A stretch of DNA of 64,000 nt from the NCBI RefSeq assembly GCF_041886205.1, contig NZ_CP169029.1. One strand, written 5' to 3'. This DNA is from Escherichia coli. Lineage in GTDB: Bacteria > Pseudomonadota > Gammaproteobacteria > Enterobacterales > Enterobacteriaceae. Of the stretch, positions 2,561-51,367 are shown in pieces (positions within the stretch are counted from its first letter, which is position 1; each line of letters opens with the position of its first letter). The notes below the pieces were generated by a model. The model did no database searches. It was not told where the DNA came from and was given only the letters and a program-made list of their open reading frames with translations. Both the position numbers and the translations under genes were made by a program.

Positions 2561-2571
2561 TTCCTGACTGA

Positions 2572-2602
2572 TGTGTAGGTCGCATAAGGTGCGACCTACA
2601 CA
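2572..2602. repeat. REP-like perfect 13-bp inverted repeat immediately downstream of opgB
   Basis: tgtgtaggtcgca / taagg / tgcgacctacaca; no T-run, so more REP-like than intrinsic terminator. Confidence 0.5.
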
Positions 2603-2699
2603 CCTTCTCCGGCCTACAAAACATCATTGAGAAACAGAAAAAAAACAGCGCCCAACACTTCCCCGGACGCTGCATGGCAACTTTAATAATCTCGCCTTA

Positions 2700-3722: not shown

Positions 3723-3860
3723 GATTCGGCTCTCCATTTTTTGTTGCCTTAGATATCAATGAAAATGAAAAATGGCAGCGGAACGGAAAATCTGTTTTGT
3801 GAAAACACACGCATAAAAATGTTTTAAATCGGGTTTTAATGGACTCACAAGGAGGAAAAT

Positions 3861-4775
3861 ATGAGTCGTTCACAAAATTTACGCCACAATGTGATTAACC
3901 AGGTCATTGATGATATGGCGCGGGGTCATATCCCTTCCCCACTTCCATCGCAAAGTGCGCTGGCGGAAATGTACAACATCAGCCGCACCACAGTGCGTCA
4001 TATTCTCAGCCATTTACGCGAATGCGGCGTCTTGACGCAGGTTGGAAACGACTATGTTATTGCGCGTAAACCTGACCACGATGACGGTTTCGCCTGTACT
4101 ACCGCTTCAATGAGTGAACAAAACAAAGTGTTTGAGCAGGCTTTTTTCACGATGATAAACCAGCGTCAGTTACGCCCTGGGGAAACTTTTTCTGAACTGC
4201 AACTGGCGCGGGCCGCGGGTGTCAGCCCGGTGGTTGTAAGAGAATATCTTTTAAAATTCGGCCGTTATAATCTAATTCAAAGCGAAAAGCGCGGCCAGTG
4301 GAGCATGAAGCAATTCGATCAATCCTACGCCGAGCAGCTGTTTGAGCTACGCGAAATGCTCGAAACACATTCACTTCAGCACTTTCTCAACCTGCCTGAT
4401 CATGATCCCCGCTGGCTGCAGGCGAAAACCATGCTCGAACGTCATCGGCTACTGCGTGACAACATCGGCAATAGCTTTCGCATGTTCTCGCAACTTGACA
4501 GAGATTTTCACTCCTTACTGCTTTCGGCTGCCGACAATATCTTTTTTGATCAATCGCTTGAGATCATCTCAGTCATCTTTCATTTTCACTATCAATGGGA
4601 CGAAAGCGATCTTAAACAGCGCAATATCATTGCCGTCGATGAGCATATGACCATTCTCAGCGCTCTGATTTGCCGCAGTGACCTTGATGCCACCCTTGCG
4701 CTCCGTAACCATTTGAATTCAGCTAAACAATCAATGATTCGATCCATTAATGAGAACACGCGTTATGCTCATTAA
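3861..4775 (+). CDS. lgoR: GntR-family transcriptional regulator of L-galactonate utilisation
   Basis: 304 aa; N-terminal winged-HTH (ISRTTVRHILSHLRECGVL) plus C-terminal FCD-like domain; SD GGAGG before ATG. Confidence 0.82.
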   Translation: MSRSQNLRHNVINQVIDDMARGHIPSPLPSQSALAEMYNISRTTVRHILSHLRECGVLTQVGNDYVIARKPDHDDGFACTTASMSEQNKVFEQAFFTMINQRQLRPGETFSELQLARAAGVSPVVVREYLLKFGRYNLIQSEKRGQWSMKQFDQSYAEQLFELREMLETHSLQHFLNLPDHDPRWLQAKTMLERHRLLRDNIGNSFRMFSQLDRDFHSLLLSAADNIFFDQSLEIISVIFHFHYQWDESDLKQRNIIAVDEHMTILSALICRSDLDATLALRNHLNSAKQSMIRSINENTRYAH

Positions 4776-4989
4776 GTACGGATTAAAAACAGCAAACTAT
4801 TAGCGGGTGCACGGTTTTATCAAAAGATAAATACCGGGAAATTCCCGCTTACCTATGCTCACAATCAGTCGACTAAAAATGTTTTTGTGAGCGGTAGTAA
4901 AGTCCTAAAACTTTAACCTGCCGTTAATGTCAACCTTGCGTAATGCACAATTACGTAAACAATTAAAATTATAAATACAGGAGTCCGGC

Positions 4990-6351
4990 GTGGAAAAAGA
5001 AAATATCACCCTCGATCCGCGTTCTTCATTTACTCCATCTTCGTCGGCAGATATTCCCGTGCCACCAGATGGATTAGTTCAACGCAGTACCCGAATTAAA
5101 CGCATTCAAACCACCGCCATGTTGTTATTATTTTTTGCGGCGGTAATCAATTATCTCGACCGCAGTTCGCTGTCGGTAGCAAATTTAACGATTCGTGAAG
5201 AATTGGGATTAAGTGCCACCGAAATCGGCGCTTTGCTCTCCGTGTTTTCACTCGCTTACGGCATTGCGCAACTTCCTTGCGGCCCACTATTGGATCGTAA
5301 AGGCCCACGCCTGATGCTGGGACTGGGGATGTTCTTCTGGTCACTGTTCCAGGCCATGTCTGGCATGGTGCACAGCTTTACGCAGTTCGTGTTGGTGCGT
5401 ATCGGTATGGGGATTGGTGAAGCGCCGATGAACCCATGCGGTGTAAAAGTCATTAACGACTGGTTCAACATCAAAGAGCGCGGACGCCCGATGGGCTTCT
5501 TCAACGCAGCTTCTACCATTGGCGTTGCCGTAAGCCCACCGATTCTGGCGGCGATGATGCTGGTGATGGGCTGGCGCGGGATGTTTATTACCATTGGTGT
5601 ACTGGGGATTTTTCTCGCCATCGGCTGGTATATGCTCTATCGCAACCGCGAGCACGTAGAACTGACTGCCGTTGAACAAGCTTATCTCAATGCAGGTAGC
5701 GTCAATGCCCGCCGAGATCCGCTCAGTTTTGCCGAATGGCGCAGCTTGTTCCGTAACCGCACAATGTGGGGAATGATGCTCGGATTCAGTGGCATCAACT
5801 ACACTGCGTGGCTGTATCTGGCCTGGCTTCCTGGTTACCTGCAAACAGCCTATAACCTGGATTTAAAAAGCACAGGGTTGATGGCGGCTATCCCTTTCCT
5901 GTTTGGGGCTGCCGGGATGCTGGTCAACGGTTACGTTACCGACTGGCTGGTCAAAGGGGGAATGGCTCCGATTAAAAGCCGTAAGATCTGCATTATTGCC
6001 GGGATGTTCTGTTCTGCCGCCTTTACGCTGATAGTACCACAAGCGACAACATCCATGACGGCGGTTCTGCTGATTGGCATGGCACTGTTCTGTATTCACT
6101 TTGCCGGAACATCCTGCTGGGGCTTGATCCACGTCGCAGTTGCTTCTCGCATGACTGCGTCGGTGGGCAGTATCCAGAACTTTGCCAGCTTCATCTGCGC
6201 CTCTTTCGCGCCGATCATTACTGGTTTTATTGTTGATACCACCCACTCATTCCGTCTGGCACTAATCATCTGCGGTTGCGTCACCGCAGCGGGGGCACTG
6301 GCGTACATCTTCCTGGTTCGTCAGCCGATCAACGACCCACGTAAAGATTAA
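4990..6351 (+). CDS. lgoT: MFS-family L-galactonate:H+ symporter
   Basis: 453 aa, GTG start, 12 predicted TM segments, MFS signature region GPLLDRKGPR. Confidence 0.82.
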   Translation: MEKENITLDPRSSFTPSSSADIPVPPDGLVQRSTRIKRIQTTAMLLLFFAAVINYLDRSSLSVANLTIREELGLSATEIGALLSVFSLAYGIAQLPCGPLLDRKGPRLMLGLGMFFWSLFQAMSGMVHSFTQFVLVRIGMGIGEAPMNPCGVKVINDWFNIKERGRPMGFFNAASTIGVAVSPPILAAMMLVMGWRGMFITIGVLGIFLAIGWYMLYRNREHVELTAVEQAYLNAGSVNARRDPLSFAEWRSLFRNRTMWGMMLGFSGINYTAWLYLAWLPGYLQTAYNLDLKSTGLMAAIPFLFGAAGMLVNGYVTDWLVKGGMAPIKSRKICIIAGMFCSAAFTLIVPQATTSMTAVLLIGMALFCIHFAGTSCWGLIHVAVASRMTASVGSIQNFASFICASFAPIITGFIVDTTHSFRLALIICGCVTAAGALAYIFLVRQPINDPRKD

Positions 6352-12498: not shown

Positions 12499-12832
12499 TT
12501 ACCTTAACCTACTCATACGAAGCGGACGAGGATAAAATCCTATCATTTTCCGTTCGCTTCATTATTTTATTTTCTTTCCAATGCCCATTCAAATTAAAAA
12601 TATAACTCTGCCATAACTTCCTGAACACAGATGTAATTACATTGCCACCTCTCATACTTTTAAAAACGATCCATATGACAAGTCGTCCTATTGGGGCGTG
12701 ATAGATGTATTAATTTCCAAATATGCAAACATTCTGATACAGTCCCAAAAAGAAAATAATTACCAACCCAGATAATCAGCAAATAAATTAATGACAGTTG
12801 AATTATAATCAACACGAATACAAGAGATTAAC

Positions 12833-14683
12833 ATGGCAACAATAATCCCAACAATCAGTAGCTGCAACGATAAAATTACTGCCGGAGAGAAAAGGCTGGC
12901 AAGAATTCTGGAAAGAGGACTAGGCGAAGAGTGCTGCTGTTGGTATGACATTCCCACGGGTGATAAGCATCTTCACCCAGATTTTATGATACTTTCGCCA
13001 GAAAAAGGCATTATTTTTCTCGAGGTAAAAGATTGGTTTATTACAAAAATAAAAAAAGCCAACAAGTCTAATGTGTGGTATGAGACACAAAATGGCATTC
13101 AATCTTTAAAGAATCCGATAGAACAAGTTAGGCGATATGCTTTCGAAGCTGTAAACCAGTTAAAAAAAGACCCCCTATTGCGCCAACAGGATGATCGTTA
13201 CAATGGCAATCTTCTTTTCCCCTATGGATATGGCGTCTACTTTAGTAATATTACACGAGAAGCATTAAATAATAAATTTACTCAAGAAGAGCTGCTCGGG
13301 ATCTTCCCATCAGATCTCATCATCTGCAAAGACGAACTAAATGAATTCATGTCAAAAGAGGATGTTTCATCTAAAATACATTCGTTAATTAAATATGACT
13401 TCAAATGTCATGCTACACAAGAACAGTTGAACAGGATTAGATGGCACTTATACCCCGATGTCAGAATAGAAAGGGAAAAGAGAAGTAAAAACCGTGATGA
13501 ATTGAGTGTCGATGCACCAACCATCATTTCTATCCTGGATACTCAACAGGAACAACTTGCCAGGAGTATGAGAGATGGCCACCGAATCATTCATGGTGTT
13601 GCAGGTTCAGGGAAGACATTGATCCTCTATCATCGCTGTCAGGAATTAGCGAAAAAAAATGACAGCGAAAAGCCAATACTTGTCATTTGCTACAATATTA
13701 CTTTAGCCAAAAAACTTCGGTCGATGTTCATCAATCATCCCTTTGCAGAGAAAATAAAGGTTAAAAATTTTCATGCATGGTGTTTCCAACAAATTAAAGA
13801 AAACAAGATCACCATTCCAGAAGGGGATAATATTTTTGAAAATATGGAGCAAGCGTTGACTGATGGTTTCAACACAGGAAAAATAAAACCAGAACAATAC
13901 AGCGCTGTATTAATTGATGAAGGACATGATTTTAAGCCCGAATGGTTAAAAATCCTTGCAAAAATGACTGACTCTCAGGACGAGAATTTGCTATTCCTTT
14001 ATGATGATGCTCAGTCAATTTACCAAAAAAAGAAAGCATTAGACTTTACACTGTCCAGCGTAGATATTAAAGCGACAGGGCGCACAACTATTCTTAATAT
14101 AAATTATAGAAACACACAGCAAATCCTACACTTTGCCAGTTGCATTGCATTTAATTATCTTAATAGCCATATCGATAGTTCTTTAACCTATCATAAACCT
14201 GCTGCGGGAGGAATGAATGGCGATTATCCCAACCTTGAACATTTCGACACACAGGACGAAGAAATAGCAAGAGCAGTCAAATGGATTACAGAGCAAAATG
14301 AACAAGGGATTCCGTGGTCTGAAATTGCTATACTAAGTCCATCAACTCATACCCTTTCTAACTCTCTAAGTTCTGTACTTGAATCGAAAAACATCCCCTT
14401 TAATCTTATTGTAAGCTCTGCAGATAAAAAATCCTGGACGCCAGAACAAGAGCGTGTTTCTGTGATGCCATTACCCAGCAGCAAAGGGCTTGAGTTTCAC
14501 TCAGTTGTCATTATTGACGCAGCGAGAACACGGGATAATAGCGATGATTTGAGTGAGGATATAAAGAGACTCTATGTAGGTTTTACCCGAGCACGTTGCA
14601 ATCTCTTGGTAACCTTGCACGGTGAAGGTGCGTTAAATGAGCATCTACTAAAAACCTATGAGCAAAGCCCACAATATATGTAA
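12833..14683 (+). CDS. NERD-domain nuclease fused to SF1 (UvrD-like) helicase; Nhi-like candidate anti-phage protein
   Basis: 616 aa; N-terminal NERD-like region with PD...(E)VK core (HPDFMIL ... IIFLEVKDW); Walker A GVAGSGKT, Walker B VLIDEGHDF, SF1 motif V/VI-like LPSSKGLEFHSVVII and LYVGFTRARCNLLV; AT-rich; occupies the slot that holds mrr-hsdRMS in K-12. Confidence 0.75.
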   Translation: MATIIPTISSCNDKITAGEKRLARILERGLGEECCCWYDIPTGDKHLHPDFMILSPEKGIIFLEVKDWFITKIKKANKSNVWYETQNGIQSLKNPIEQVRRYAFEAVNQLKKDPLLRQQDDRYNGNLLFPYGYGVYFSNITREALNNKFTQEELLGIFPSDLIICKDELNEFMSKEDVSSKIHSLIKYDFKCHATQEQLNRIRWHLYPDVRIEREKRSKNRDELSVDAPTIISILDTQQEQLARSMRDGHRIIHGVAGSGKTLILYHRCQELAKKNDSEKPILVICYNITLAKKLRSMFINHPFAEKIKVKNFHAWCFQQIKENKITIPEGDNIFENMEQALTDGFNTGKIKPEQYSAVLIDEGHDFKPEWLKILAKMTDSQDENLLFLYDDAQSIYQKKKALDFTLSSVDIKATGRTTILNINYRNTQQILHFASCIAFNYLNSHIDSSLTYHKPAAGGMNGDYPNLEHFDTQDEEIARAVKWITEQNEQGIPWSEIAILSPSTHTLSNSLSSVLESKNIPFNLIVSSADKKSWTPEQERVSVMPLPSSKGLEFHSVVIIDAARTRDNSDDLSEDIKRLYVGFTRARCNLLVTLHGEGALNEHLLKTYEQSPQYM

Positions 14684-14827
14684 AAATGATAAATGATCTC
14701 CATAACGCCCGGTAACGCGGTACCGGGCGAAATGAATGCATATCTAAGATATTAGTCACGCCTGATAGCCGCTACCAAAAACACCATCATCTCCCTCGCA
14801 TCTTTGCGGTGATAAAATCGTACCATT

Positions 14828-15121
14828 TTGCTGTTAAATTCCAGCGCGTTAGCCGCTGGAATTAACAAGATCAGACTTCCGGCAACGAAGAGCCAGTTAT
14901 TACAAAAATTACTGGCAAAAGAGATAAAAAGCATTGTTGACAACACATCGAAATATCCTGACTGGAGTAAACACGATGATATTAAAGCGAAACTGAAAGT
15001 TGAACTTATTCTGCTTCTACACAAGCATAAGTTCCCGTCAGTAGCGAATGATGATGTTTATATGGGTGTGCTGGCACAGGCAGAGAGTTTTAAAGAACAT
15101 CATATGAGTCCTATAAATTAA
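14828..15121 (+). pseudogene. Orphan ORF fragment without ATG start, possible relic of a displaced restriction cassette
   Basis: 97-codon frame beginning at TTG with no convincing RBS; reads like the C-terminal tail of a larger protein; located between the NERD-helicase gene and symE. Confidence 0.3.
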
Positions 15122-15376: not shown

Positions 15377-15677
15377 AGTCTCCCCGGCAAATAACCGTCA
15401 ATTAACCGTGAGTTATGCGAGCCGCTACCCGGATTACAGCCGTATTCCCGCCATCACCCTGAAAGGTCAGTGGCTGGAAGCCGCCGGTTTTGCCACCGGC
15501 ACGGCGGTAGATGTCAAAGTAATGGAAGGCTGTATTGTCCTCACCGCCCAACAACCCGCCGCCGAAGAGAGCGAACTGATGCAGTCGCTGCGCCAGGTGT
15601 GCAAACTGTCGGCGCGTAAACAAAAGCAGGTGCAGGATTTTATTGGGGTGATTGCCGGTAAACAGAAAGTCGCCTGA
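15336..15677 (+). CDS. symE: SOS-induced toxin SymE (AbrB/MazE-like fold endoribonuclease)
   Basis: 113 aa from ATG 15336 with AAGGAA SD; sequence [25 protein letters not shown] ... matches remembered SymE (YjiW). Confidence 0.8.
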
Positions 15678-15684
15678 TAAATTG

Positions 15685-15716
15685 ACCCGGTAGCGCCAGT
15701 GCTACCGGGTATTATT
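15685..15716. terminator. Bidirectional hairpin between convergent symE and GmrSD-like gene
   Basis: acccggtagc / gccagt / gctaccgggt followed by attatt; lies between stop codons 15677 and 15724. Confidence 0.6.
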
Positions 15717-15723
15717 CGCCACG

Positions 15724-17817
15724 TTATACCAACGCGCTCTCCATCTGTTTTTCAAATGCCTGACGAATTAATCCCATAATGTAAGGAAGTTGTGCGAGGT
15801 CGCTGAAACCAATTTCCACATCACCATTACCCCAGCGCCCAATATTTGTCACATCTTTGGCAATACCTTTCGGATCGACCAGTTCATGAAACTGCATATT
15901 AAGCGACAATCGCAGTCGGCTTTTTTGCGGCACAACATCAACAAAATTCGTTTCAGCTTTAAACGCAATATACAGCTTTAAAACTTCCTGCGTGATCCCT
16001 GCGTCCAGGCGCATAACTTCATCGCGAAGATGATCGAATAACACCCGGCTATGCGAACCATCAGCAAGAAAAGGATAATCACTCAGGCTGTAACTGGTTT
16101 TGTTTTCTGGCTGCCCCCGATAAACAGCTAAAACCTCTTCAGAAAGAGAAGGCGCTTGCCAGACCTGAACCGCGAGATCGGCCAGACGATCGGCTCGGGC
16201 GTGAATGGCGGCTTCATCCCATTTTTCGCACTGTCCAAGACCGATATTCAAATAAAGCGGGCTATGTTTAAAGCCATCTTCAATATCGCGTTTTTCCGCG
16301 AAAGGTCTGTCACTGTAGCGGGAGTTATAGCGCGTTAAAGTGAGATTCCCCAACGTATGTAACAGTTCTTTATGCACACGCTGCCAGTCGCTTCCCAGCT
16401 CTTCACGCCATTTAGCCGACAGATTTTCGTTCTGCGGCATAATGTGCTCAATCGTAAACTCTTCCACGCGCTCTCTGCGTTTATCGTTTTCCAGTCGTCG
16501 TAACCAGTAGCTGCGGCTGCGGAAGTTATAGAGATCGCGCACTTTTAATTCCCGTTTAAATTCATCATCGTTGGGGAAACGACGATATGAAGGCAGGTTC
16601 ATAAAATGTACCTGAATACTTTCCAGATATTTTTCTTTATTAATGACCTTATAAAAAGTGGCAAACGTCTTGTTAAGAGAATTCGTCGGAATCGCACATA
16701 CTGCACGGCGGAAAACATAAGATTCAATTAAACGAATTATGCTCAGGAAATCTTCGTGAGACAAATCGTCATTTTTATAGTCATGATAAAGCGCCAGTAA
16801 GAAAGGATACGCCACATCAACCTTTAACTCGCGCAAATCCTGAAAAGCCGTAGCAAGCGATTTGTCACTTTCTTTTCCCAATGCCATTGCACAGTAATAC
16901 TCCGCGTAGATATGAATATCTTCAACCAGCCGATCTACGCCTTTTTCAGCAACACTCTGGCTGCGGGCATGGAGTTTAAATGCCTCATAGACTTCATCTG
17001 TCCGAGGGATCTCCCCCGTTTTTACCGTCAGATAATGACGCATAAAACTGTCAAAATATTCGCTGTAACCTTGCTGACCAAAGGCGACTTCCATTGGACG
17101 CCAGTGATCTTCATACAACCGGGTTTGATGCTCTGGTTCGAGACCCATCAGAATAAAATTGCGCACCAGATCGGCCTGACTTAACGCCTTACCGGTGGAG
17201 TTCATACTTTCAAAAATCAGTTGCGGATTATCCTGACCACGATTAAGCGCCACATCGACAATTAATAACTTTGCTAACCCTCGACATAAGGGAATCAAGT
17301 CATCCCCGAGTTTGGCAATTTGCTCATCAAAGAAAGTAAAGTTTTCCATTATTCGATGGGAATAGTTTTCTGGCATTGGTCTTTGTTTTATTAACGCCAG
17401 CAAACTGTCTTTATCAGTCTCGGTCAGCAGTAATTTAAAACCTTTCTCGCCGGACTCATAAGGATTGAGCAAATAATAATTACGCAATTTCATTGCCGAA
17501 AAGCCATCAAAAACTTCGTCTTCGCCAAGATGGCGCGATAAAGCCTCAATCAGCAACATTGCGGTCGTCAGCCGCTGCTGACCATCAATGACCAGCAACG
17601 GAGAAATACCAGAAACCTGATACAACCCCTGCTCAATATAAACAACCGAACCGATAAAATGCGCTGATATATCGTCACGCTTTCCGGCACGAATGATGTC
17701 GTCCCAAAGTTGCCGACATTGTTGCCCGGTCCATGAATAGGTGCGTTGATAAATGGGAATAACAAACTGCTGCGAACGTTTTAAAAAATCGAGTAGGCGG
17801 GCTTCTGTAGCTTTCAT
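15724..17817 (-). CDS. Type IV modification-dependent restriction endonuclease, GmrSD family (DUF262 + DUF1524)
   Basis: 697 aa; N-terminal DUF262/ParB-like NTPase motifs (IPIYQRTYSW, IDGQQRLTT); C-terminal DUF1524 His-Me finger motifs (EHIMPQ, HTLGNLTLT); sits where mcrBC lies in K-12. Confidence 0.75.
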   Translation of the reverse strand: MKATEARLLDFLKRSQQFVIPIYQRTYSWTGQQCRQLWDDIIRAGKRDDISAHFIGSVVYIEQGLYQVSGISPLLVIDGQQRLTTAMLLIEALSRHLGEDEVFDGFSAMKLRNYYLLNPYESGEKGFKLLLTETDKDSLLALIKQRPMPENYSHRIMENFTFFDEQIAKLGDDLIPLCRGLAKLLIVDVALNRGQDNPQLIFESMNSTGKALSQADLVRNFILMGLEPEHQTRLYEDHWRPMEVAFGQQGYSEYFDSFMRHYLTVKTGEIPRTDEVYEAFKLHARSQSVAEKGVDRLVEDIHIYAEYYCAMALGKESDKSLATAFQDLRELKVDVAYPFLLALYHDYKNDDLSHEDFLSIIRLIESYVFRRAVCAIPTNSLNKTFATFYKVINKEKYLESIQVHFMNLPSYRRFPNDDEFKRELKVRDLYNFRSRSYWLRRLENDKRRERVEEFTIEHIMPQNENLSAKWREELGSDWQRVHKELLHTLGNLTLTRYNSRYSDRPFAEKRDIEDGFKHSPLYLNIGLGQCEKWDEAAIHARADRLADLAVQVWQAPSLSEEVLAVYRGQPENKTSYSLSDYPFLADGSHSRVLFDHLRDEVMRLDAGITQEVLKLYIAFKAETNFVDVVPQKSRLRLSLNMQFHELVDPKGIAKDVTNIGRWGNGDVEIGFSDLAQLPYIMGLIRQAFEKQMESALV

Positions 17818-18254
17818 TCTGACGTCTTTCCGTGAAGCGATGATTTCGCAATAATAACCGCTTCCTTGTGGAGGTTATAGAGAAATCCTGTTTATCCGCG
17901 ATGAATTGCCCCCTCACTCCACATCCTCCCTACGTAACCCAATATCCCTCAACCGCTCATCACTCATCTGCTGTAACACTCGTCGGGTCTGCATTTGCCG
18001 CCGCCAACGCCTCACCGCCTGCCAGAGTTGCACAAGTCTGATAAACGGCGTTTTGGCTTTGTTTTCGTGAAATTCCATCTGCTGCCTCCTCATCTTTCAG
18101 AGGCTTCATCATCCGCCTTCTGGCAGTTCACAATACAGATGCAAATATTAGTTTTATTTAACATACAGACAGGTTAAAACAGCATCTGCATCCGGTTTTT
18201 TAGCCTCATCTGTACCGGTTTTTCTTTCTGTATGGGCCAAATAAGGAATACAGC

Positions 18255-39926: not shown

Positions 39927-40763
39927 ATGGATGACTGTGGTGCGATTTTGCATAATATTGAAACCAAATGGCTTTATGATTTTCTGACCCTGGAAAAATG
40001 CCGCAATTTTTCCCAGGCGGCAGTCAGTCGCAACGTCTCGCAACCGGCATTCAGCCGCCGCATCCGTGCGCTGGAACAGGCGATTGGTGTTGAATTGTTT
40101 AACCGCCAGGTAACGCCGCTGCAACTCTCAGAACAAGGGAAAATCTTCCATTCGCAGATCCGCCATCTGTTGCAACAGTTAGAGAGCAATCTGGCAGAGC
40201 TGCGTGGCGGCAGCGATTACGCGCAACGAAAAATCAAGATAGCCGCTGCACACTCTCTTTCCCTCGGGCTGTTACCGTCCATTATCAGCCAGATGCCGCC
40301 GCTCTTTACCTGGGCAATTGAAGCTATTGATGTCGATGAAGCGGTCGATAAACTGCGTGAAGGGCAAAGTGACTGTATTTTTTCCTTTCACGACGAAGAT
40401 TTGCTGGAAGCGCCGTTTGACCACATTCGCTTATTTGAATCTCAATTGTTCCCTGTCTGCGCCAGTGACGAACACGGAGAAGCACTTTTTAACCTCGCGC
40501 AGCCACACTTTCCGTTACTGAATTACAGCCGCAACTCCTACATGGGGCGATTGATTAATCGCACCCTGACGCGCCACAGTGAGTTAAGTTTCAGCACCTT
40601 TTTTGTCTCTTCGATGAGCGAGCTTTTAAAGCAGGTTGCCCTCGACGGCTGTGGGATTGCCTGGCTGCCGGAGTACGCCATCCAACAAGAAATTCGCAGC
40701 GGGAAGCTCGTTGTACTGAATCGGGACGAACTGGTGATCCCGATTCTGGCCTATGCATACTGA
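39927..40763 (+). CDS. hypT: LysR-family hypochlorite-responsive regulator, C-terminally truncated allele
   Basis: LysR wHTH (LEKCRNFSQAAVSRNVSQPAFSRRIRALE); ORF ends at TGA 40761-40763 and the same frame continues for 24 more sense codons ([24 protein letters not shown]) before the next stop; 278 + 1 + 24 = 303, the length I recall for HypT. Confidence 0.75.
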   Translation: MDDCGAILHNIETKWLYDFLTLEKCRNFSQAAVSRNVSQPAFSRRIRALEQAIGVELFNRQVTPLQLSEQGKIFHSQIRHLLQQLESNLAELRGGSDYAQRKIKIAAAHSLSLGLLPSIISQMPPLFTWAIEAIDVDEAVDKLREGQSDCIFSFHDEDLLEAPFDHIRLFESQLFPVCASDEHGEALFNLAQPHFPLLNYSRNSYMGRLINRTLTRHSELSFSTFFVSSMSELLKQVALDGCGIAWLPEYAIQQEIRSGKLVVLNRDELVIPILAYAY

Positions 40764-42865: not shown

Positions 42866-43639
42866 TCAGGCGTCGACTTTATCCAGCGGCCATGAATCAA
42901 ACAGATAGCCATCAAAATAAATATCGTCAACGTTCGAGAATTCCAGCAGACGTTGCTTAACGTTTTCCAGATGCTGCCACATTGCCAGCTTCGCCGCTCG
43001 GGCATCTTTTTTGATTAACGCGGCGAGGATCTGTTTGTGATCGCCCAACCACTCTTTGCGATACAGGCTGTCATCCAGATGGCTGTGCAACTGGATCCAC
43101 ATTGGATTGTTTTCCCGCCACTGCCAGGACTGACGGAACAGCTCCACCAGCATGCTGTTATGCGTTGCTTCGGCAATAGCGAGATGGAACTGCATGTCAC
43201 CGCTTTCGCTGCTGCCCGGCGCACTGGAAGCCAGTTCACGCTCTTCCAGTTGCAATGCCTGACGCATTTTGACGATATCTTCGCGGGTAGCCTGCAGGGC
43301 GGCAAACTCGGCGATGTTGCTCTCAAGAAGCTGTCGCGCCTGCAACAGCTCAAAAGGACCCGCATCATTGCAAACGTTGGCATCCGGACTGTCTGTGTTG
43401 TGGCTGCCTGAGCTATCAAGAACATAGATACCGGCACCCCGGCGCACTTCCACCAGCCCTTTGATCTCCAGCATGATCAGCGCTTCACGTACCACCGTCC
43501 GCGTGACATCAAGCATTTCTGCAATTTCACGCTCCGGCGGCAGCCGTTCGCCAGGATTGTACGGCGTCTTTATGATCAGATCGCGGATCATCGCCCCGAC
43601 TTCCTGGTAAGGTCTTTGCGCAGAGGTGGCAGATTTCAT
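42866..43639 (-). CDS. uxuR: GntR/FadR-family repressor of hexuronate utilisation
   Basis: 257 aa; N-terminal wHTH (DVTRTVVREALIMLEIKGLVEVRRGAGIYV) plus FCD domain. Confidence 0.9.
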   Translation of the reverse strand: MKSATSAQRPYQEVGAMIRDLIIKTPYNPGERLPPEREIAEMLDVTRTVVREALIMLEIKGLVEVRRGAGIYVLDSSGSHNTDSPDANVCNDAGPFELLQARQLLESNIAEFAALQATREDIVKMRQALQLEERELASSAPGSSESGDMQFHLAIAEATHNSMLVELFRQSWQWRENNPMWIQLHSHLDDSLYRKEWLGDHKQILAALIKKDARAAKLAMWQHLENVKQRLLEFSNVDDIYFDGYLFDSWPLDKVDA

Positions 43640-43852: not shown

Positions 43853-45313
43853 TTACAGCGCAGCCACACACTCGCGCGCACCGCGTTCGCACAGCTGCTG
43901 ATATGCCGCCGTCACCGCGCCAACAAAGTCCGCATTTTGCGGCAGATCATCGGCAAAAATACCGCTCAGGCCCAGCAACGCTTTCACGCGGTCTGCGCCC
44001 TGATTCTGCGCGTTGATCTTCTGGAACTCCGCCAGCATCGGGTCAACTACGTCAATGGCATTACCCTGCTCATCCACGCCCTGGGTGTAGCGCATCCAGC
44101 CAGCCACGCCCAGCGCCAGGTGACGCCAGCTGCCGCCGTTTTGCAGGTGCAGACGCACCGGATCCAGCAGACGCTGCGGTAACTTCTGGCTGCCGTCCAT
44201 CGCAATCTGCCAGGTACGGTGACGCAGAGACGGGTTGCTGAAACGCTCGATCAGCAGCGTCGCATAGGCGTTCAGGTCCGTACCTTCCGGCATCGACAGC
44301 GTTGGCGCTTGTTCCTGCATCATCAGGGCAAAGGCCGCTTTGCGATAATCCGGGTTAGTCATGGTGTCGGCAATAGTTTCATAGCCGCCGAGGTAACCGA
44401 GGTATGCCAGGAAAGAGTGGCTGCCGTTCAGCATACGCAGCTTCATCATTTCGAACGGCACAACGTCTGCAACGAACTGTGCGCCCACTTTATCCCAGTC
44501 CGGGCGACCATTAACGAAGTTATCTTCAATCACCCACTGACGGAACGGTTCGCAGGCAATGGCGCACGGGTCGTAAACACCCAGCTGGTCAGCAATTTCC
44601 TGTAAGGTTTCTGGCGTCGCCGCCGGAACGATGCGGTCAACCATGGTGCACGGGAAGGTGACGTTCTCTTCAATCCATGCCGCCAGCTGCGGATCGCGTG
44701 CCTGAGCCAGCCCAAGAACGGCAACCTTCGCCACATGACCGTTTTCTCGCACGTTGTCGCAGGACATCACCGTAAACGCTTTCAACCTTTTTTCACGACG
44801 CAGGCGCAACGCTTCTACGATGTAACCAATCGCGGACTTCGGCGCAGTCGGGTTTTCCAGATCGTGCTTGATCAGCGGGTTATTGAGATCCAGTTGACCG
44901 CTTGCCGCATCAGCGCAGTAGCCTTTTTCCGTGACCGTTAGAGAGACAATCGCCGTTTGCGGACGCGCCATCGCGTTGAGAATACCTTCGCAGCCATCGA
45001 TTTCCGGATGCAGCGCTTCTTTCATTGAACCGATAATTTTCAGCTCGGTGCTTTCTGCGCCTTTTTCCGCCACGGTGTACAGCAGTTGCTGTTTTTTCAG
45101 GTTTTCGATCAGCACGCGGTCGTTGCCTGGCATCAGGTTAACTTCGCAGATACCCCAGTCGCTGTCGGTGCTTTCCAGCAGGTGATGGGTATACAGCGCC
45201 TGGTGCGCGCGGTGAAACGCCCCGCAACCGAGATGCACAATGCGTGATTCCAGACGAGAATGATCCCATGACGGGCGGGCAACCGGCAGATTGCTGTCAA
45301 CAATAGTAGTCAT
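43853..45313 (-). CDS. uxuB: D-mannonate oxidoreductase (fructuronate reductase)
   Basis: 486 aa; mannitol-dehydrogenase-family Rossmann fold; synteny uxuA-uxuB-uxuR. Confidence 0.9.
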   Translation of the reverse strand: MTTIVDSNLPVARPSWDHSRLESRIVHLGCGAFHRAHQALYTHHLLESTDSDWGICEVNLMPGNDRVLIENLKKQQLLYTVAEKGAESTELKIIGSMKEALHPEIDGCEGILNAMARPQTAIVSLTVTEKGYCADAASGQLDLNNPLIKHDLENPTAPKSAIGYIVEALRLRREKRLKAFTVMSCDNVRENGHVAKVAVLGLAQARDPQLAAWIEENVTFPCTMVDRIVPAATPETLQEIADQLGVYDPCAIACEPFRQWVIEDNFVNGRPDWDKVGAQFVADVVPFEMMKLRMLNGSHSFLAYLGYLGGYETIADTMTNPDYRKAAFALMMQEQAPTLSMPEGTDLNAYATLLIERFSNPSLRHRTWQIAMDGSQKLPQRLLDPVRLHLQNGGSWRHLALGVAGWMRYTQGVDEQGNAIDVVDPMLAEFQKINAQNQGADRVKALLGLSGIFADDLPQNADFVGAVTAAYQQLCERGARECVAAL

Positions 45314-45393: not shown

Positions 45394-46578
45394 TTAACGG
45401 CTAAAGAAAGCGCGCTGGATCGCCAGTTCGACACCGCGAACTTCGGCCAGGCCTTTCAGACGACCAATTGCGGAGTAACCTGGGTTGGTTTTCTTCTTCA
45501 GGTCGTCCAGCATCTGATGACCGTGGTCCGGACGCATCGGGATCAGGTCTTCTTTGCCTTCCGCTTTACGACGGTGTTCTTCTTCAACAATCGCTTTCAC
45601 CACTTCGTACATATCAACGTCACCGTTCAGGTGCGCCGCTTCGTGGAAGGTTTTGGGGTTATCTTCACGCATGGTGGAGCGCAGATGGGTGAAGTAAATG
45701 CGCGGACCAAACTGCTTGATCATATCAACCAGATCGTTGTCAGCACGCACGCCGTAGGAACCGGTGCACATGGTGAAACCGTTCGCCATGCTGTTTACGG
45801 TATCAACCATCCACTGCATATCTTCAATGGTGGAAACAATGCGCGGCAGGCCGAGGATCGGGCGCGGCGGATCGTCCGGGTGAACAGCCATACGCACGCC
45901 AACTTCTTCGGCAACCGGAATAATCGCTTTCAGGAAGACCGCAAAGTTTTCGCGCAGTTTGGCTTTGTCGATATCTTTGTACAGCTCCAGGTGTTTACGG
46001 AACTGGTCGAGGGTGTAGCCTTCTTCCGCGCCCGGAAGACCAGCAATGATGTTACGGGTCAGACGCGCTTTGTCTTCGTCGCTCATAGTGGCGAAGCGAA
46101 CAGCAGCCTGAGCAATTTCTTCTTCGGCGTAATCCGCTTCCGCGCCTGGACGTTTCAGGATATGCATTTCGAATGCAGCGAATTCGATCTGGTCGAAGCG
46201 CAGCGCTTTGGAGCCGTCTGGCAGCACGTATTCGAGGTCAGTACGGGTCCAGTCGAGCACCGGCATGAAGTTGTAGCACACGGTGCGAATGCCGCACTGC
46301 GCCAGGTTGCGCAGAGTCTGCTGATAGTTAGCGATCCACTGCTCATAGTTGCCAGTGTGGGTTTTGATATCTTCGTGAATTGGTACGCTTTCTACGACAG
46401 ACCACACCAGGCCTGCGTCTTCAACGATCGCCTTGCGTTTGAGGATCTCTTCTACGGACCATACTTCGCCGTTCGGGATATGGTGCAGCGCGGTAACCAC
46501 GCCAGTTGCGCCCGCCTGACGGACATCAGCTAAAGAAACCGGATCGTTTGGGCCGTACCAGCGCCAGGTCTGTTCCAT
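45394..46578 (-). CDS. uxuA: D-mannonate dehydratase
   Basis: 394 aa from [16 protein letters not shown]; synteny. Confidence 0.9.
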
Positions 46579-46740
46579 GATTTTTCCTCTTTCACATAGT
46601 GGGTTCCACAGCAAAGAGACGCGGAACCCTGGAGTTGTTTAGGTATCCGGATGAACAACCAGACCGCAGCCGTGGCGTTGCATCGGATGAGATGGCGTAT
46701 AAGTTCTACCTTTTGGTAAGACATGTCAACCCGAATTCTG

Positions 46741-46757
46741 AAATTGGTTAACCACAT
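46741..46757. promoter_or_regulatory. UxuR/ExuR operator-like palindrome in uxuA upstream region
   Basis: aaattggttaaccacat with TGGTTAACCA palindromic core. Confidence 0.5.
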
Positions 46758-46972
46758 CACAAGAAATCAACTCTATTGCTGGTTGATGCAAATGACAACA
46801 AAGGAGAAGCGGCGGTTAGTAATCGGGGGATGTGACATTCATCGCAATAATGGTTGACCAATTTACATAACGTGTCGCCCAAAATAACAATGGATTAACC
46901 TACTCCCCCATTGCATAAGTTGTGACCGACACAACAAAACTGATGTTGTTGCAAAGATTGCTATTTAGTTTT

Positions 46973-46987
46973 GGTATAAAAGGTATA
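46973..46987 (+). promoter_or_regulatory. Tandem GGTATA repeats, NanR-operator-like, about 50 bp upstream of nanM
   Basis: GGTATAaaaGGTATA; NanR is known to bind GGTATA repeats. Confidence 0.4.
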
Positions 46988-47036
46988 CAGGCACATGGTG
47001 CGACATTTGAATTCCAGCGATCAGGAGTAATTCACA

Positions 47037-48143
47037 ATGAATAAAACAATAACGGCGCTTGCTATCATGATGGCTTCATTTGCCGCAAACGCGTCTGTAT
47101 TACCGGAAACTCCTGTGCCATTTAAAAGTGGTACCGGAGCAATTGATAACGACACTGTCTACATTGGTTTAGGTAGCACAGGTACGGCATGGTACAAGCT
47201 GGATACACAGGCCAAAGATAAAAAATGGACAGCGTTAGCTGCATTCCCTGGCGGACCAAGAGATCAAGCAACCTCGGCATTTATTGATGGCAATCTGTAT
47301 GTGTTTGGCGGCATTGGCAAAAACAGCGAGGGCTTGACTCAGGTATTTAATGACGTACACAAATACAACCCCAAAACCAATAGTTGGGTTAAATTGATGT
47401 CGCACGCACCGATGGGCATGGCGGGTCATGTAACTTTTGTACACAACGGCAAGGCTTATGTTACTGGCGGTGTTAACCAGAATATCTTCAATGGCTATTT
47501 TGAAGATCTCAACGAGGCTGGAAAAGATTCAACCGCTGTAGATAAAATCAACGCTCACTATTTTGACAAAAAAGCAGAAGATTATTTCTTCAATAAGTTT
47601 CTGTTGTCTTTTGATCCCTCAACACAGCAATGGAGTTACGCTGGCGAATCCCCCTGGTACGGAACGGCTGGTGCGGCGGTTGTGAATAAAGGTGATAAAG
47701 CCTGGCTTATTAATGGCGAAGCCAAACCAGGATTGCGAACGGATGCCGTATTTGAACTTGATTTCACCGGTAATAATTTAAAATGGAATAAGCTTGCTCC
47801 CGTCTCATCACCAGATGGCGTCGCTGGCGGTTTTGCGGGGATAAGCAATGATTCTCTTATATTTGCCGGAGGGGCCGGATTCAAAGGTTCACGAGAAAAT
47901 TACCAGAACGGTAAGAACTATGCGCATGAAGGCCTGAAAAAATCATATAGCGCTGATGTTCATCTTTGGCATAACGGGAAATGGGATAAATCGGGCGAAT
48001 TGTCGCAAGGTCGGGCCTACGGAGTATCATTGCCCTGGAATAATAGTTTATTAATTATTGGCGGTGAAACTGCAGGCGGCAAAGCGGTGACGGATTCAGT
48101 TTTGATCTCTGTGAAGGATAATAAAGTCACAGTACAAAACTAA
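47037..48143 (+). CDS. nanM: N-acetylneuraminate mutarotase (Kelch-repeat beta-propeller, periplasmic)
   Basis: 368 aa; signal peptide MNKTITALAIMMASFAANA; repeated GG-containing Kelch blades (YVFGGIG, YVTGGVN, IFAGGAGF, LLIIGGE). Confidence 0.85.
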   Translation: MNKTITALAIMMASFAANASVLPETPVPFKSGTGAIDNDTVYIGLGSTGTAWYKLDTQAKDKKWTALAAFPGGPRDQATSAFIDGNLYVFGGIGKNSEGLTQVFNDVHKYNPKTNSWVKLMSHAPMGMAGHVTFVHNGKAYVTGGVNQNIFNGYFEDLNEAGKDSTAVDKINAHYFDKKAEDYFFNKFLLSFDPSTQQWSYAGESPWYGTAGAAVVNKGDKAWLINGEAKPGLRTDAVFELDFTGNNLKWNKLAPVSSPDGVAGGFAGISNDSLIFAGGAGFKGSRENYQNGKNYAHEGLKKSYSADVHLWHNGKWDKSGELSQGRAYGVSLPWNNSLLIIGGETAGGKAVTDSVLISVKDNKVTVQN

Positions 48144-48207: not shown

Positions 48208-49188
48208 ATGGACGCAATAATATCGCCCGATTATTACTATGTTCTTACCGTTGCTGGTCAGTCTAATGCCATGGCGTATGGCGAAGGACTGCCATTACCG
48301 GACAGGGAAGATGCGCCTCATCCCAGAATTAAACAATTAGCAAGATTTGCGCATACGCATCCCGGAGGCCCGTCATGTCACTTTAACGACATTATTCCAC
48401 TGACTCACTGCCCACACGATGTTCAGGATATGCAGGGTTATCACCATCCTCTGGCAACGAATCATCAAACACAGTACGGCACCGTTGGCCAGGCACTGCA
48501 TATTGCACGGAAATTACTGCCCTTCATTCCTGATAATGCAGGGGTTCTCATCGTTCCATGTTGTCGTGGCGGCTCGGCTTTTATCGCAGGCAGCGAAGGG
48601 ACATATTCAGAACGGCACGGAGCCAGCCATGATGCTTGTCGTTGGGGAACGGATACTCCGCTATACCAGGATTTAGTCAGCAGAACGCGAGCCGCACTGG
48701 CAAAAAATCCGCAGAACAAATTCCTCGGCGTATGCTGGATGCAAGGCGAATTTGACTTAATGACCTGTGACTACTCGTCACACCCTCAACACTTTAATCA
48801 TATGGTTGAAGCCTTTCGTAGGGATCTAAAACAATACCATTCTCAGCTTAATAAAATTACTGACGCGCCGTGGTTTTGCGGCGATACCACCTGGTACTGG
48901 AAAGAAAATTTCCCTCATGCGTATGAAGCTATTTATGGCAATTATCAAAATAATGTTTTAGCTAATATTATTTTCGTCGACTTCCAGCAACAAGGTGAAA
49001 GAGGACTGACGAACGCGCCTGATGAAGACCCGGACGATTTAATCATGGGATATTACGGTTCAGCGTACCGGTCACCGGAGAACTGGACGACGGCACTGCG
49101 AAGCAGTCATTTCAGCGCGGCAGCCCGTCGGGGGATTATTTCTGACAGGTTTGTAGAAGCAATTTTGCAGTTTTGGCGCGAAAGGTGA
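48208..49188 (+). CDS. nanS: 9-O-acetyl-N-acetylneuraminate esterase (SGNH-like)
   Basis: 326 aa directly downstream of nanM; LTVAGQSNAM Ser-containing motif near N-terminus. Confidence 0.8.
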   Translation: MDAIISPDYYYVLTVAGQSNAMAYGEGLPLPDREDAPHPRIKQLARFAHTHPGGPSCHFNDIIPLTHCPHDVQDMQGYHHPLATNHQTQYGTVGQALHIARKLLPFIPDNAGVLIVPCCRGGSAFIAGSEGTYSERHGASHDACRWGTDTPLYQDLVSRTRAALAKNPQNKFLGVCWMQGEFDLMTCDYSSHPQHFNHMVEAFRRDLKQYHSQLNKITDAPWFCGDTTWYWKENFPHAYEAIYGNYQNNVLANIIFVDFQQQGERGLTNAPDEDPDDLIMGYYGSAYRSPENWTTALRSSHFSAAARRGIISDRFVEAILQFWRER

Positions 49189-49195
49189 GCGTTCA

Positions 49196-49846
49196 TTAAT
49201 TTGATTTATTCGCATCCATTAGCGCTTTTAACTGCTCCGGCGTAAACGGTGGTTTGCGTCGGTGCAGCATCGCATGGCAATTAGGGCACACAGGAAGCAA
49301 ATCATTAACTGGATCCAGCTGGTAATCCTCTTTAATGGCTGAAAGCGGCACCAGGTGATGCACATGGATAAAGCCTTCAGCGATATCACCATAGATCTTC
49401 ACCAGATCAACGCCGCATACGTTGCATTGGCATCCATGATGTTCGACCGCTTTATCTCGGGCCTTTTTATCGCGTTCATAGCGGTTTACTGTCACCTTTA
49501 TCGCCGCACCTTCAACGTAGGTCCCCTGCGACGGCAGCTCATCCGGGAACAGAACGTCGGCTATGGGAGCCGCAGCGGCTTTATCCTGATGAATATGAAA
49601 TCCCTGCTCTATGAGTAGCTTGACACATTTAGATTTTATTCCGCCGGTGAAATCCGCAGGGGTAAATTGCGTCCCCGTCATCAATGTCGCTGCGATGCCA
49701 GCAATCGCCTTCGAGGGGTAACGTCGGCCATGATATTCAATTTCATACAACCGTGCAGGCTGGAACTGATGAGTTTCTCCCGCATCCCATAAATGAATAG
49801 CTTCGATGATATACCGCCGCGGAAGATGATCGGGGAGTTTATTCAT
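49196..49846 (-). CDS. HNH endonuclease with N-terminal putative DNA-recognition domain (candidate modification-dependent restriction enzyme)
   Basis: 216 aa; SD AAGGA; C-terminal HNH motif (CQCNVCGVD ... HVHHLVPL ... CPNCHAMLH); stop codon 8 bp from nanS stop (convergent). Confidence 0.7.
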   Translation of the reverse strand: MNKLPDHLPRRYIIEAIHLWDAGETHQFQPARLYEIEYHGRRYPSKAIAGIAATLMTGTQFTPADFTGGIKSKCVKLLIEQGFHIHQDKAAAAPIADVLFPDELPSQGTYVEGAAIKVTVNRYERDKKARDKAVEHHGCQCNVCGVDLVKIYGDIAEGFIHVHHLVPLSAIKEDYQLDPVNDLLPVCPNCHAMLHRRKPPFTPEQLKALMDANKSN

Positions 49847-49992
49847 AGAGAATGTCCTTATACGTTCTCAGAACAAGCAGCAAAAAAACAAATGAGATCA
49901 AAGTAATATATCTTCACTTGCAGGCTTGAACAGCAGAAAATTTGCGAGCATGATCGCAATTATTTCACTGCCAGGGAGGTAATGACTCCAAC

Positions 49993-50496
49993 TTATTGAT
50001 AGTGTTTTATGTTCAGATAATGCCCGATGACTTTGTCATGCAGCTCCACCGATTTTGAGAACGACAGCGACTTCCGTCCCAGCCGTGCCAGGTGCTGTCT
50101 CAGATTCAGGTTATGCCGCTCAATTCGCTGCGTATATCGCTTGCTGATTACGTGCAGCTTTCCCTTCAGGCGGGATTCATACAGCGGCCAGCCATCCGTC
50201 ATCCATATCACCACGTCAAAGGGTGACAGCAGGCTCATAAGACGCCCCAGCGTCGCCATAGTGCGTTCACCGAATACGTGCGCAACAACCGTCTTCCGGA
50301 GCCTGTCATACGCGTAAAACAGCCAGCGCTGGCGCGATTTAGCCCCGACATAGCCCCACTGTTCGTCCATTTCCGCGCAGACGATGACGTCACTGCCCGG
50401 CTGTATGCGCGAGGTTACCGACTGCGGCCTGAGTTTTTTAAATGGCGGAAAATCGTGTTGAGGCCAACGCCCATAATGCGGGCGGTTGCCCGGCAT
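49993..50496 (-). CDS. insB: IS1 transposase InsB
   Basis: 167-aa ORF matching IS1 InsB ([19 protein letters not shown]...). Confidence 0.9.
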
Positions 50497-50690
50497 CCAA
50501 CGCCATTCATGGCCATATCAATGATTTTCTGGTGCGTACCGGGTTGAGAAGCGGTGTAAGTGAACTGCAGTTGCCATGTTTTACGGCAGTGAGAGCAGAG
50601 ATAGCGCTGATGTCCGGCGGTGCTTTTGCCGTTACGCACCACCCCGTCAGTAGCTGAACAGGAGGGACAGCTGATAGAAACAGAAGCCAC
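50415..50690 (-). CDS. insA: IS1 protein InsA
   Basis: 91 aa, zinc-finger [37 protein letters not shown]; overlaps insB as in IS1 (frameshift fusion InsAB'). Confidence 0.9.
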
Positions 50691-50766
50691 TGGAGCACCT
50701 CAAAAACACCATCATACACTAAATCAGTAAGTTGGCAGCATCACCCAGCAAACGAACCTGGATGAT

Positions 50767-51057
50767 TTGCCGGATAAAGCCAGCATCATTGACGCGTTTT
50801 TTACCTTTGCTCAACGCGAACAGCAACGTGAAGCAGAAGCCTTGATCAAAGAAGAAAATCTCAATGAAGAGGCGGCGAAACGCTATATTCGCACGTCTTT
50901 AAAACGCGAATACGCCACCGAAAATGGCACGGAATTAAACGAGACATTGCCAAAACTCAGTCCGTTAAATCCGCAATATAAGACGAAAAAACAGACGGTT
51001 TTCCAGAAGATCGTCGCGTTTATTGAGAAGTTTAAAGGTGTAGGCGGGCAGATATAA
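50767..51057 (+). pseudogene. Truncated ORF (C-terminal fragment) abutting the IS1 end
   Basis: 96-codon frame beginning 22 bp after the IS1 terminus; charged, helical-looking sequence; followed by a perfect hairpin cctgatctg/cagatcagg; identity unknown. Confidence 0.35.
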
Positions 51058-51241
51058 TGTATTAATCCGAACCTGATCTGGCAGATAGCTGTCAGATCAG
51101 GACTGAGCTAATACAAATTAATGTCGAACCGAAAATACCAACGCCTGTACCAACATTTTTCGTTTGCGATGGGTTGGAATTGGTTAGCCCTGAGAGAGTT
51201 AAAATAGCGAGAAAGATAGGTAACTAACGGATTTCAGACAC

Positions 51242-51266
51242 AAAAAAAGCCGCTCTTGAGCGGCTC
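51242..51266 (-). terminator. Rho-independent terminator of leuX
   Basis: Minus strand: gccgctc / tcaa / gagcggc followed by a T-run (plus-strand aaaaaaa at 51242-51248). Confidence 0.75.
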
Positions 51267-51282
51267 GATTTGCATACGGTGT

Positions 51283-51367
51283 GGTGCCGAAGGCCGGACT
51301 CGAACCGGCACGTATTTCTACGGTTGATTTTGAATCAACTGCGTCTACCGATTTCGCCACTTCGGCA
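51283..51367 (-). tRNA. leuX: tRNA-Leu (anticodon CAA)
   Basis: 85-nt minus-strand sequence GCCGAAGTGGCGAAATCGGTAGACGCAGTTGATTCAAAATCAACCGTAGAAATACGTGCCGGTTCGAGTCCGGCCTTCGGCACCA; anticodon loop TTCAAAA; next to ahr as in K-12. Confidence 0.92.

Follow-up and report, generated by a model that had tools for sequence, protein, structure and literature searches.

The 458-bp spacer between uxuA and nanM in this strain of Escherichia coli (positions 46579-47036 of the 64-kb stretch of DNA that was analyzed, hereafter the window) is very probably an old scar of compound deletion, common to several Escherichia species and with predicted functional consequences. In K-12, the start codons of the same two genes lie 12,870 bp apart, enclosing gntP, the fim genes in the order fimH-G-F-D-C-I-A-E-B, a 1.45-kb spacer and nanC. 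In the window, uxuR-uxuB-uxuA on the minus strand lie directly beside nanM-nanS on the plus strand, an arrangement collinear with the reverse-complemented K-12 chromosome and unchanged in orientation; the K-12 locus (NC_000913.3, 4,536,614-4,555,349) has the flanking genes in the same order. NCBIfam models identify uxuR, uxuB, uxuA and nanM with scores well above their cut-offs (table 1). A sequence-only reading of the window had given the K-12 order and orientation of uxuA, gntP, fimH-fimB, nanC and nanM correctly and had measured the gap exactly, with uxuA ending at 46578 and nanM beginning at 47037. Its claim that gntP, the fim operon and nanC are absent is borne out across the whole 64 kb: blastn with every K-12 gene of the interval gave no match for gntP, fimB-fimH or nanC, the only K-12 genes matched being iraD, yjiC, uxuR, uxuB, uxuA, nanM and nanS.

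The adjacency of uxuA and nanM is real. An assembly artefact is excluded because the same spacer, with 0-3 differences, is found in two complete genomes, ET201 (from a frog, China) and 6EVA (from a human, Singapore), and in all 6 of the 6 independent public contigs that were compared base by base. The same gene neighborhood, moreover, is present in 23 of the 23 public contigs read that encode the identical NanM protein.

Set against K-12, the locus retains the identical uxuA half of the promoter region, both UxuR/ExuR-type palindromes, the spacing of the NanR repeats, and nanM and nanS genes that are 98% identical. Missing are gntP, nine fim genes including the fimS switch and FimR2, about 960 bp of the spacer between fimB and nanC, the nanC leader, and 695 of the 717 bp of nanC.

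Table 1. Coordinates of genes, surviving segments and operator-like elements around the uxuA-nanM spacer
Feature	Position	Strand	Remarks
uxuR, Uxu operon repressor	42866-43639	-	Intact; NF007588 equivalog, 584 bits; 98.2% identity to K-12
uxuB, fructuronate reductase	43853-45313	-	Intact; NF011611, 1122 bits; 97.6% identity to K-12
uxuA, mannonate dehydratase	45394-46578	-	Intact, left flank of the scar; TIGR00695 equivalog, 790 bits; 98.1% identity to K-12, full length
uxuA-proximal half of the uxuA-gntP intergenic region, E. coli type	46579-46765		Identical to K-12 through 46765
UxuR/ExuR operator-like palindrome 1 (AAATTGGTTAACCA)	46741-46754		Inverted-repeat pair I1; conserved in K-12
Decayed gntP-promoter half, 135 bp	46766-46900		About 19% different from K-12; groups with the alleles of E. 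whittamii and SCPM-O-B-8794
UxuR/ExuR operator-like palindrome 2 (TGGTTGACCAATTT)	46851-46864		Kept without gntP; conserved in K-12, E. whittamii and SCPM-O-B-8794
TTAACC at junction 1	46895-46900		Single copy in the window; two copies in E. whittamii (alignment A1)
Remnant of the nanC regulatory region, 95 bp, directly before nanM	46901-46995	+	Kept in E. whittamii, SCPM-O-B-8794 and E1V33
NanR operator-like repeats GGTATA-AAA-GGTATA-CA-GGCACA	46973-46995	+	K-12 spacing: GGTATA-ACA-GGTATA-AA-GGTGCA
Last 22 nt of nanC, remnant	46996-47017	+	Junction 2 just to the left; 16/22 identical to the 3' end of K-12 nanC
nanC-nanM spacer with nanM ribosome-binding site AGGAG	47018-47036	+	Aligned to the K-12 spacer
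nanM, N-acetylneuraminate epimerase	47037-48143	+	Intact, right flank of the scar; NF010730, 601 bits; 98.4% identity to K-12
nanS, sialate O-acetylesterase	48208-49188	+	Intact; 97.7% identity to K-12 nanS, full length; annotated nanS in ET201 and 6EVA

Aligned to K-12, the spacer resolves into three collinear blocks of homology. The first (46300-46900) corresponds to uxuA and the uxuA-gntP intergenic region and ends 18 bp before the position of the gntP ATG; the second (46914-46991) matches the K-12 fimB-nanC spacer at about 425-505 bp upstream of nanC (59/82 identical, E = 6e-4, collinear); and the third runs from 46996 into nanM, beginning 22 nt inside the nanC reading frame, before its stop. 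This alignment with the uxuA-gntP and nanC-nanM regions of K-12, which the earlier reading had proposed, locates the two junctions at 46900/46901 and 46995/46996. The 3' remnant of nanC has a binomial P of about 4e-5 in its anchored, ungapped register against K-12, while as a free local search the same 22 nt are not significant (347/2000 shuffles). The 95 bp of nanC regulatory DNA left standing between the gaps call for two deletions, of about 11.3 and 1.1 kb; the alignment implies a net loss of 12,412 bp with respect to K-12. The deletion of roughly 11-12 kb that had been proposed is therefore upheld in kind, but its size is 12.4 kb and it divides into two events rather than one. Nor does the uxuA promoter region run directly into DNA upstream of nanM, as had been stated, since 135 bp of gntP-promoter and 95 bp of nanC/NanR-operator DNA intervene.

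We propose that the first deletion, of about 11.3 kb, would have extended from the ribosome-binding site of gntP past fimB and over about two thirds of the spacer between fimB and nanC, and that the second, of about 1.1 kb, would have taken the nanC leader and all of nanC except its last 22 nt, leaving between them the approximately 95 bp of the nanC promoter region that carry the NanR operator. The resulting haplotype may then have persisted as an old polymorphism, or homologous recombination through uxuA and nanM may have carried it from one lineage to another.

Could a single deletion, made recently in an E. coli chromosome otherwise like that of K-12, have produced the same structure? In its favor, the genes on either side have 98-100% K-12-like sequence and K-12 has the missing interval in one piece, but the sequence around the junctions tells a different story. 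Past 46765 the divergence from K-12 rises to about 19%, the adjoining flanks being 98-100% identical, and over the 271 bp around the junctions (46766-47036) it amounts to 17-34% while adjacent DNA is identical. Besides, the 95 bp of nanC regulatory DNA between the gaps demand two separate gaps, and the same junctions recur in species whose flanking genes are 16-36% different at four-fold sites. We thus regard a recent deletion as very improbable, and the simplest reading of the loss, as a recent event in a K-12-like genome, gives way to that of an old scar common to several Escherichia species.

The evidence for this wider distribution comes from a scan for NanM in one genome per bacterial (GTDB) species, which yielded four Escherichia loci, with E. 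albertii, E. fergusonii, E. marmotae and E. ruysiae not among them. The locus of E69 is a full fim-nanC-nanM site. In E. whittamii Sa2BVA5 (L005) and in SCPM-O-B-8794 (L006), uxuA adjoins nanM; the latter organism is labelled 'E. coli' but comes from the collection of one genome per GTDB species, and is treated here as the representative of a non-coli Escherichia species. The junctions are identical in the window, ET201, 6EVA, E. whittamii and SCPM-O-B-8794 (alignment A1), and the last two have the same surviving segments as the window. Over the block 46746-47036, identity to the window is 93% for E. whittamii and 87% for SCPM-O-B-8794. Escherichia sp. E1V33 has the same nanC-less fusion of operator and nanM, with different genes upstream; its spacer is longer, and the local alignment by which extra nanC debris was sought in it is not significant (426/2000 shuffles).

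The copy of E. whittamii has a further feature that is absent from the window: 114 extra bp at junction 1 (L005, 9744-9857), bracketed by two copies of TTAACC. This insert contains the start region of gntP followed by 38 bp that are 82% identical to gntP nt ~778-815 (0/2000 shuffles), plus another match of 16/17 to gntP about 160 bp downstream, with gene order kept. The 3' tail of the insert has no significant match in the rest of the interval deleted with respect to K-12 (227/300 shuffles), for which reason no fim remnant is claimed; none was found in any of the scar alleles. The scar is eroding stepwise. The gntP debris is absent also from SCPM-O-B-8794, even though the block of the window is closer to that of E. 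whittamii, a distribution which implies either repeated short-homology deletion (two events, between TTAACC repeats) or recombination within the scar.

Since the E. whittamii copy holds fragments of gntP, this gene was once present there, which argues for loss and not for primary absence, namely that an ancestral uxuA-nanM adjacency has been kept and that ordinary E. coli later gained gntP-fim-nanC by insertion. The latter possibility draws on the fim cluster of Citrobacter, which lies in a different neighborhood and indicates that fim moves over long times, and on the K-12 gntP-promoter block, which is equidistant from all scar alleles: between 46746 and 46900, K-12 has 26-27 differences from each of three scar alleles, and these share 15 unpolarised differences against K-12. 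Equidistance by itself gives no direction, however, while the scar is homologous to nanC over 22 nt of its reading frame and to the gntP promoter over 135 bp, so that an insertion would need to have found the last seven codons of nanC in pre-existing DNA. Furthermore, fimH has been reported in E. marmotae (PMC11546641) and in E. ruysiae (bioRxiv 10.64898/2026.04.21.719883), from which we infer that fim was ancestrally present in this part of the genus and is no novelty of E. coli; together with the layout of the fim-bearing E. coli that were examined, the presence of fimH in other Escherichia suggests that fim lay within the deleted interval. Primary absence is consequently improbable: of the two options that had been left side by side, deletion or a lineage that never carried these genes, the former is favored by the gntP fragments in the E. 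whittamii scar and by the 22 nt from the 3' end of nanC. Two candidates for the role of full-site outgroup were rejected, P0029, with a FimH of 93% identity, which turned out to be an ordinary E. coli with frameshift-type errors, and the FimH of Citrobacter, which sits in an unrelated neighborhood. All FimH proteins of Escherichia share 90% clusters with that of E. coli.

This leaves the question of how a scar so similar in different species came to lie between flanks of E. coli type. From 46582 to 46745 the window has no differences from K-12, 11 from E. whittamii and 6 from SCPM-O-B-8794; from 46746 to 46900, the corresponding numbers are 26, 14 and 21. At the four-fold sites of uxuA, uxuB and nanM, the window differs from K-12 by 5-8%, from E. 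whittamii by 16-36% and from SCPM-O-B-8794 by 18-28%; the flanks of the two latter organisms are thus diverged at species level, whereas those of the window are of E. coli type. Identity to K-12 in segments of 100 bp is 96-100% throughout uxuA and most of nanM-nanS, with one segment at 94% and one at 93%, and it drops only in the segments closest to the junctions on either side. The scar block and its flanks differ in history, because the block groups with alleles of other species and the flanking genes are E. coli-type. The haplotype would then be either an old polymorphism with homogenised flanks, or an entry from a relative of the cryptic clades by homologous recombination through uxuA and nanM. 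Different histories apparently meet in E69 (L004, 9265-12167) too, at the nanC/nanM border, which has the appearance of another recombination boundary: its nanC and fim are 91-97% K-12-like, yet its nanM is 31.8% different at four-fold sites. The alleles of nanM and nanS are in general very diverse (E69, L005-L007), differences at four-fold sites between nanM alleles of Escherichia reaching 37%.

The two UxuR/ExuR operator-like palindromes are 93% complementary to each other, and their presence fits the two UxuR binding sites of the K-12 uxuA-gntP spacer (PMC5934670). The earlier proposal of a UxuR-like operator at 46741-46757 holds good; it corresponds to the first palindrome, at 46741-46754, and is extended by its partner. 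The control region for divergent transcription is present with both palindromes, but the divergent gntP is absent. On the other side, GGTATA occurs at 46973-46978 and 46982-46987, followed by a degenerate third repeat. GGTATA repeats constitute the NanR operator, and an operator of this type is carried by nanCMS (PMC3658417; PMC8012715), and nanCMS is among the three operons controlled by NanR (PMC3658417; PMC8012715; PMC5934670). Here the operon is nanMS instead of nanCMS, nanC being cut to 22 nt and nanM and nanS being intact, and the operator lies about 40 bp from nanM, whereas in K-12 it is about 425 bp from nanC. A scan of 46901-47036 for consensus sigma-70 promoters found no site, and the putative promoter before nanMS is placed solely by homology to the regulatory region of K-12 nanC. 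An Rfam search of 46300-47300 gave no match to any RNA family.

How frequent is the scar? A contiguous uxuA-nanM spacer is present in 2 of 5,426 complete E. coli genomes, those of ET201 and 6EVA. Over the locus, the two nearest complete chromosomes are 99.2-99.5% and 98.4-98.8% identical to the window, and over 24 kb the identity to ET201 is 99.4%, against 96.9% for the next best complete genome. The window would thus represent a rare, deep lineage of the E. coli group, to judge from these comparisons. The lineage has been sampled repeatedly, since 277 blocks of an assembly collection index precisely this NanM protein. Two metagenome contigs have the junction pattern. A strain nearly identical to ours appears to be present in a public metagenome, one contig of which (OGXJ01000071.1, L020, 65.7 kb) is 99.96% identical to the window over uxuB-nanS at its positions 807-6142.

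The closeness of these genomes bears on whether fim, gntP and nanC might be intact elsewhere in the chromosome, displaced by inversion or transposition. The visible part of the source genome is limited to 64 kb, which leaves room for such a relocation, but the genes are not in the window, and a chimeric query that joined the scar to segments of nanC, fimB, fimA, fimD, fimH and gntP matched in one place only on the chromosomes of ET201 and 6EVA, the six segments of missing genes being detected nowhere else at megablast sensitivity. The orientation of the genes at the junction, besides, is that of a simple deletion and not of an inversion. Relocation is, on these grounds, extremely unlikely.

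Loss of fim is in itself common. In the set of 5,426 complete genomes, fimC-fimD had no match in 526 and was covered at 80% or more in 4,733, so that about 10% of complete E. coli genomes are without fimCD altogether; nanC had no match in 363 and at least 80% coverage in 5,045, and for gntP the numbers were 34 and 4,532. Insertion sequences lie at the break in PSS-16 (L015, IS1) and ET151 (L016, IS5/ISKpn26), and six further genomes look like cases of IS-linked partial fim deletion by the annotations under the matches. Some EAEC genomes have just a 171-bp partial match to fimH (PMC8281228). In PSS-16, ET151 and these EAEC the genes for type 1 fimbriae have gone from the same chromosomal site, in what is a recurrent loss. 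A 93-bp incomplete ORF, possibly a remnant of gntP, lies about 450 bp from uxuA in both PSS-16 and ET151.

Should the scar then be attributed to an IS-mediated deletion of the same sort, with later loss of the IS? The independent IS1- and IS5-linked deletions just mentioned would make this an obvious route, and there is an IS1 2.9 kb to the right of the scar in the window; nevertheless, the spacer 46579-47036 contains no IS sequence, IS terminal repeat or transposase ORF, nor was any long repeat found in it. The deletions of PSS-16 and ET151 have other end points, keep nanC plus fragments of gntP and of fimH or fimE, and break in ordinary E. coli-type sequence, whereas the scar of the window is free of IS, has lost nanC as well and is common to several species. 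The TTAACC repeats of E. whittamii, for their part, point to short-homology deletion instead of IS. An IS-mediated origin is accordingly hardly credible. We considered also an excision linked to the tRNA gene leuX, and rejected it: leuX is 4.2 kb away on the right, beyond the retained nanM and nanS, and no direct repeats of 10 nt or more were found at the junctions. What the window presents is a known kind of variation, the unusual part of which is an IS-free scar that crosses species. The literature that was searched yielded no account of this junction, and no phylogroup for ET201 or 6EVA.

Other differences were observed in the vicinity. On the leuX side the island is tiny (49196-51366), comprising a gene for an HNH/ScoMcrA-like endonuclease (49196-49846), next to it a complete IS1 (49977-50745) and finally leuX itself, tRNA-Leu(CAA) (51282-51366). 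In place of this IS1, ET201 and 6EVA have about 9 kb with AbiEii/DUF6088/DUF4942 genes and a type I restriction-modification system, a difference suggestive of a deletion linked to the IS1; in K-12, nanS is followed on the same side by many more genes. In E1V33 (L007, 2746-9790), a type II Zorya anti-phage system (ZorA2, ZorB2, ZorE) and a gene of the DruH/YjiT family replace uxuA, and since the Zorya genes stand directly upstream of the fusion of operator and nanM, a defence island abuts the same remnant of the nan promoter. Further to the left in the window, hypT, encoding a LysR regulator of hypochlorite stress (39927-40763, plus strand), has a stop at codon 279 of 303, and therefore the HypT of this strain is without its last 25 residues; ET201 differs by a single base at the stop site and encodes the full protein. 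The stretches 12501-14910 and 15654-17902, in the area of restriction systems near symE and yjiA, have no counterpart at this position in ET201, so that the window departs here even from the complete genome nearest to it.

In functional terms, the strain should be unable to make type 1 fimbriae, being without fimA-H and the fimB/fimE/fimS switch. It would be devoid of GntP, the UxuR-regulated permease for fructuronate and gluconate, while uxuAB-uxuR and both operators remain, and equally of the sialic-acid channel NanC. The last loss may be read against the observation that K-12 needs NanC only when OmpF and OmpC are absent (PMC3658417). Judging from the operator that is retained, NanR probably continues to repress nanM-nanS, and sialic acid to induce them, with a short leader in place of the nanC leader of about 425 nt. 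The scar also takes away the control region of fimB that links fimbriation to sialic acid.

Type 1 fimbriae, through FimH, are the main mannose-binding adhesin of E. coli, and FimH is a drug and vaccine target whose gene serves as a typing marker. Where the loss is clean, free of IS and irreversible, as here, a lineage would be scored fimH-null on typing and would be expected not to adhere in mannose-sensitive assays. The practical weight of the finding is modest because loss of fim is so common among complete genomes. For the physiology of sialic acid, the NanR-controlled promoter fused to nanMS provides a natural experiment on the importance of NanC and of the long nanC leader for the use of this substrate, and in evolutionary terms the locus is a small but clear example of a deletion haplotype common to different Escherichia species, with homogenised flanks. 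One may go further, tentatively, and imagine a single ancient haplotype, afimbriate and NanC-less, that either lasts as a polymorphism in several Escherichia species or was handed from one to another by homologous recombination through uxuA and nanM, and that was kept working by selection, the 95 bp between the deletions being just the promoter piece with the NanR operator, by which nanMS would stay regulated by sialic acid. We hold this to be possible but rather doubtful; if it were true, the scar would be a case of a regulon rewired in nature, and a marker of lineages living with no mannose-binding fimbriae.
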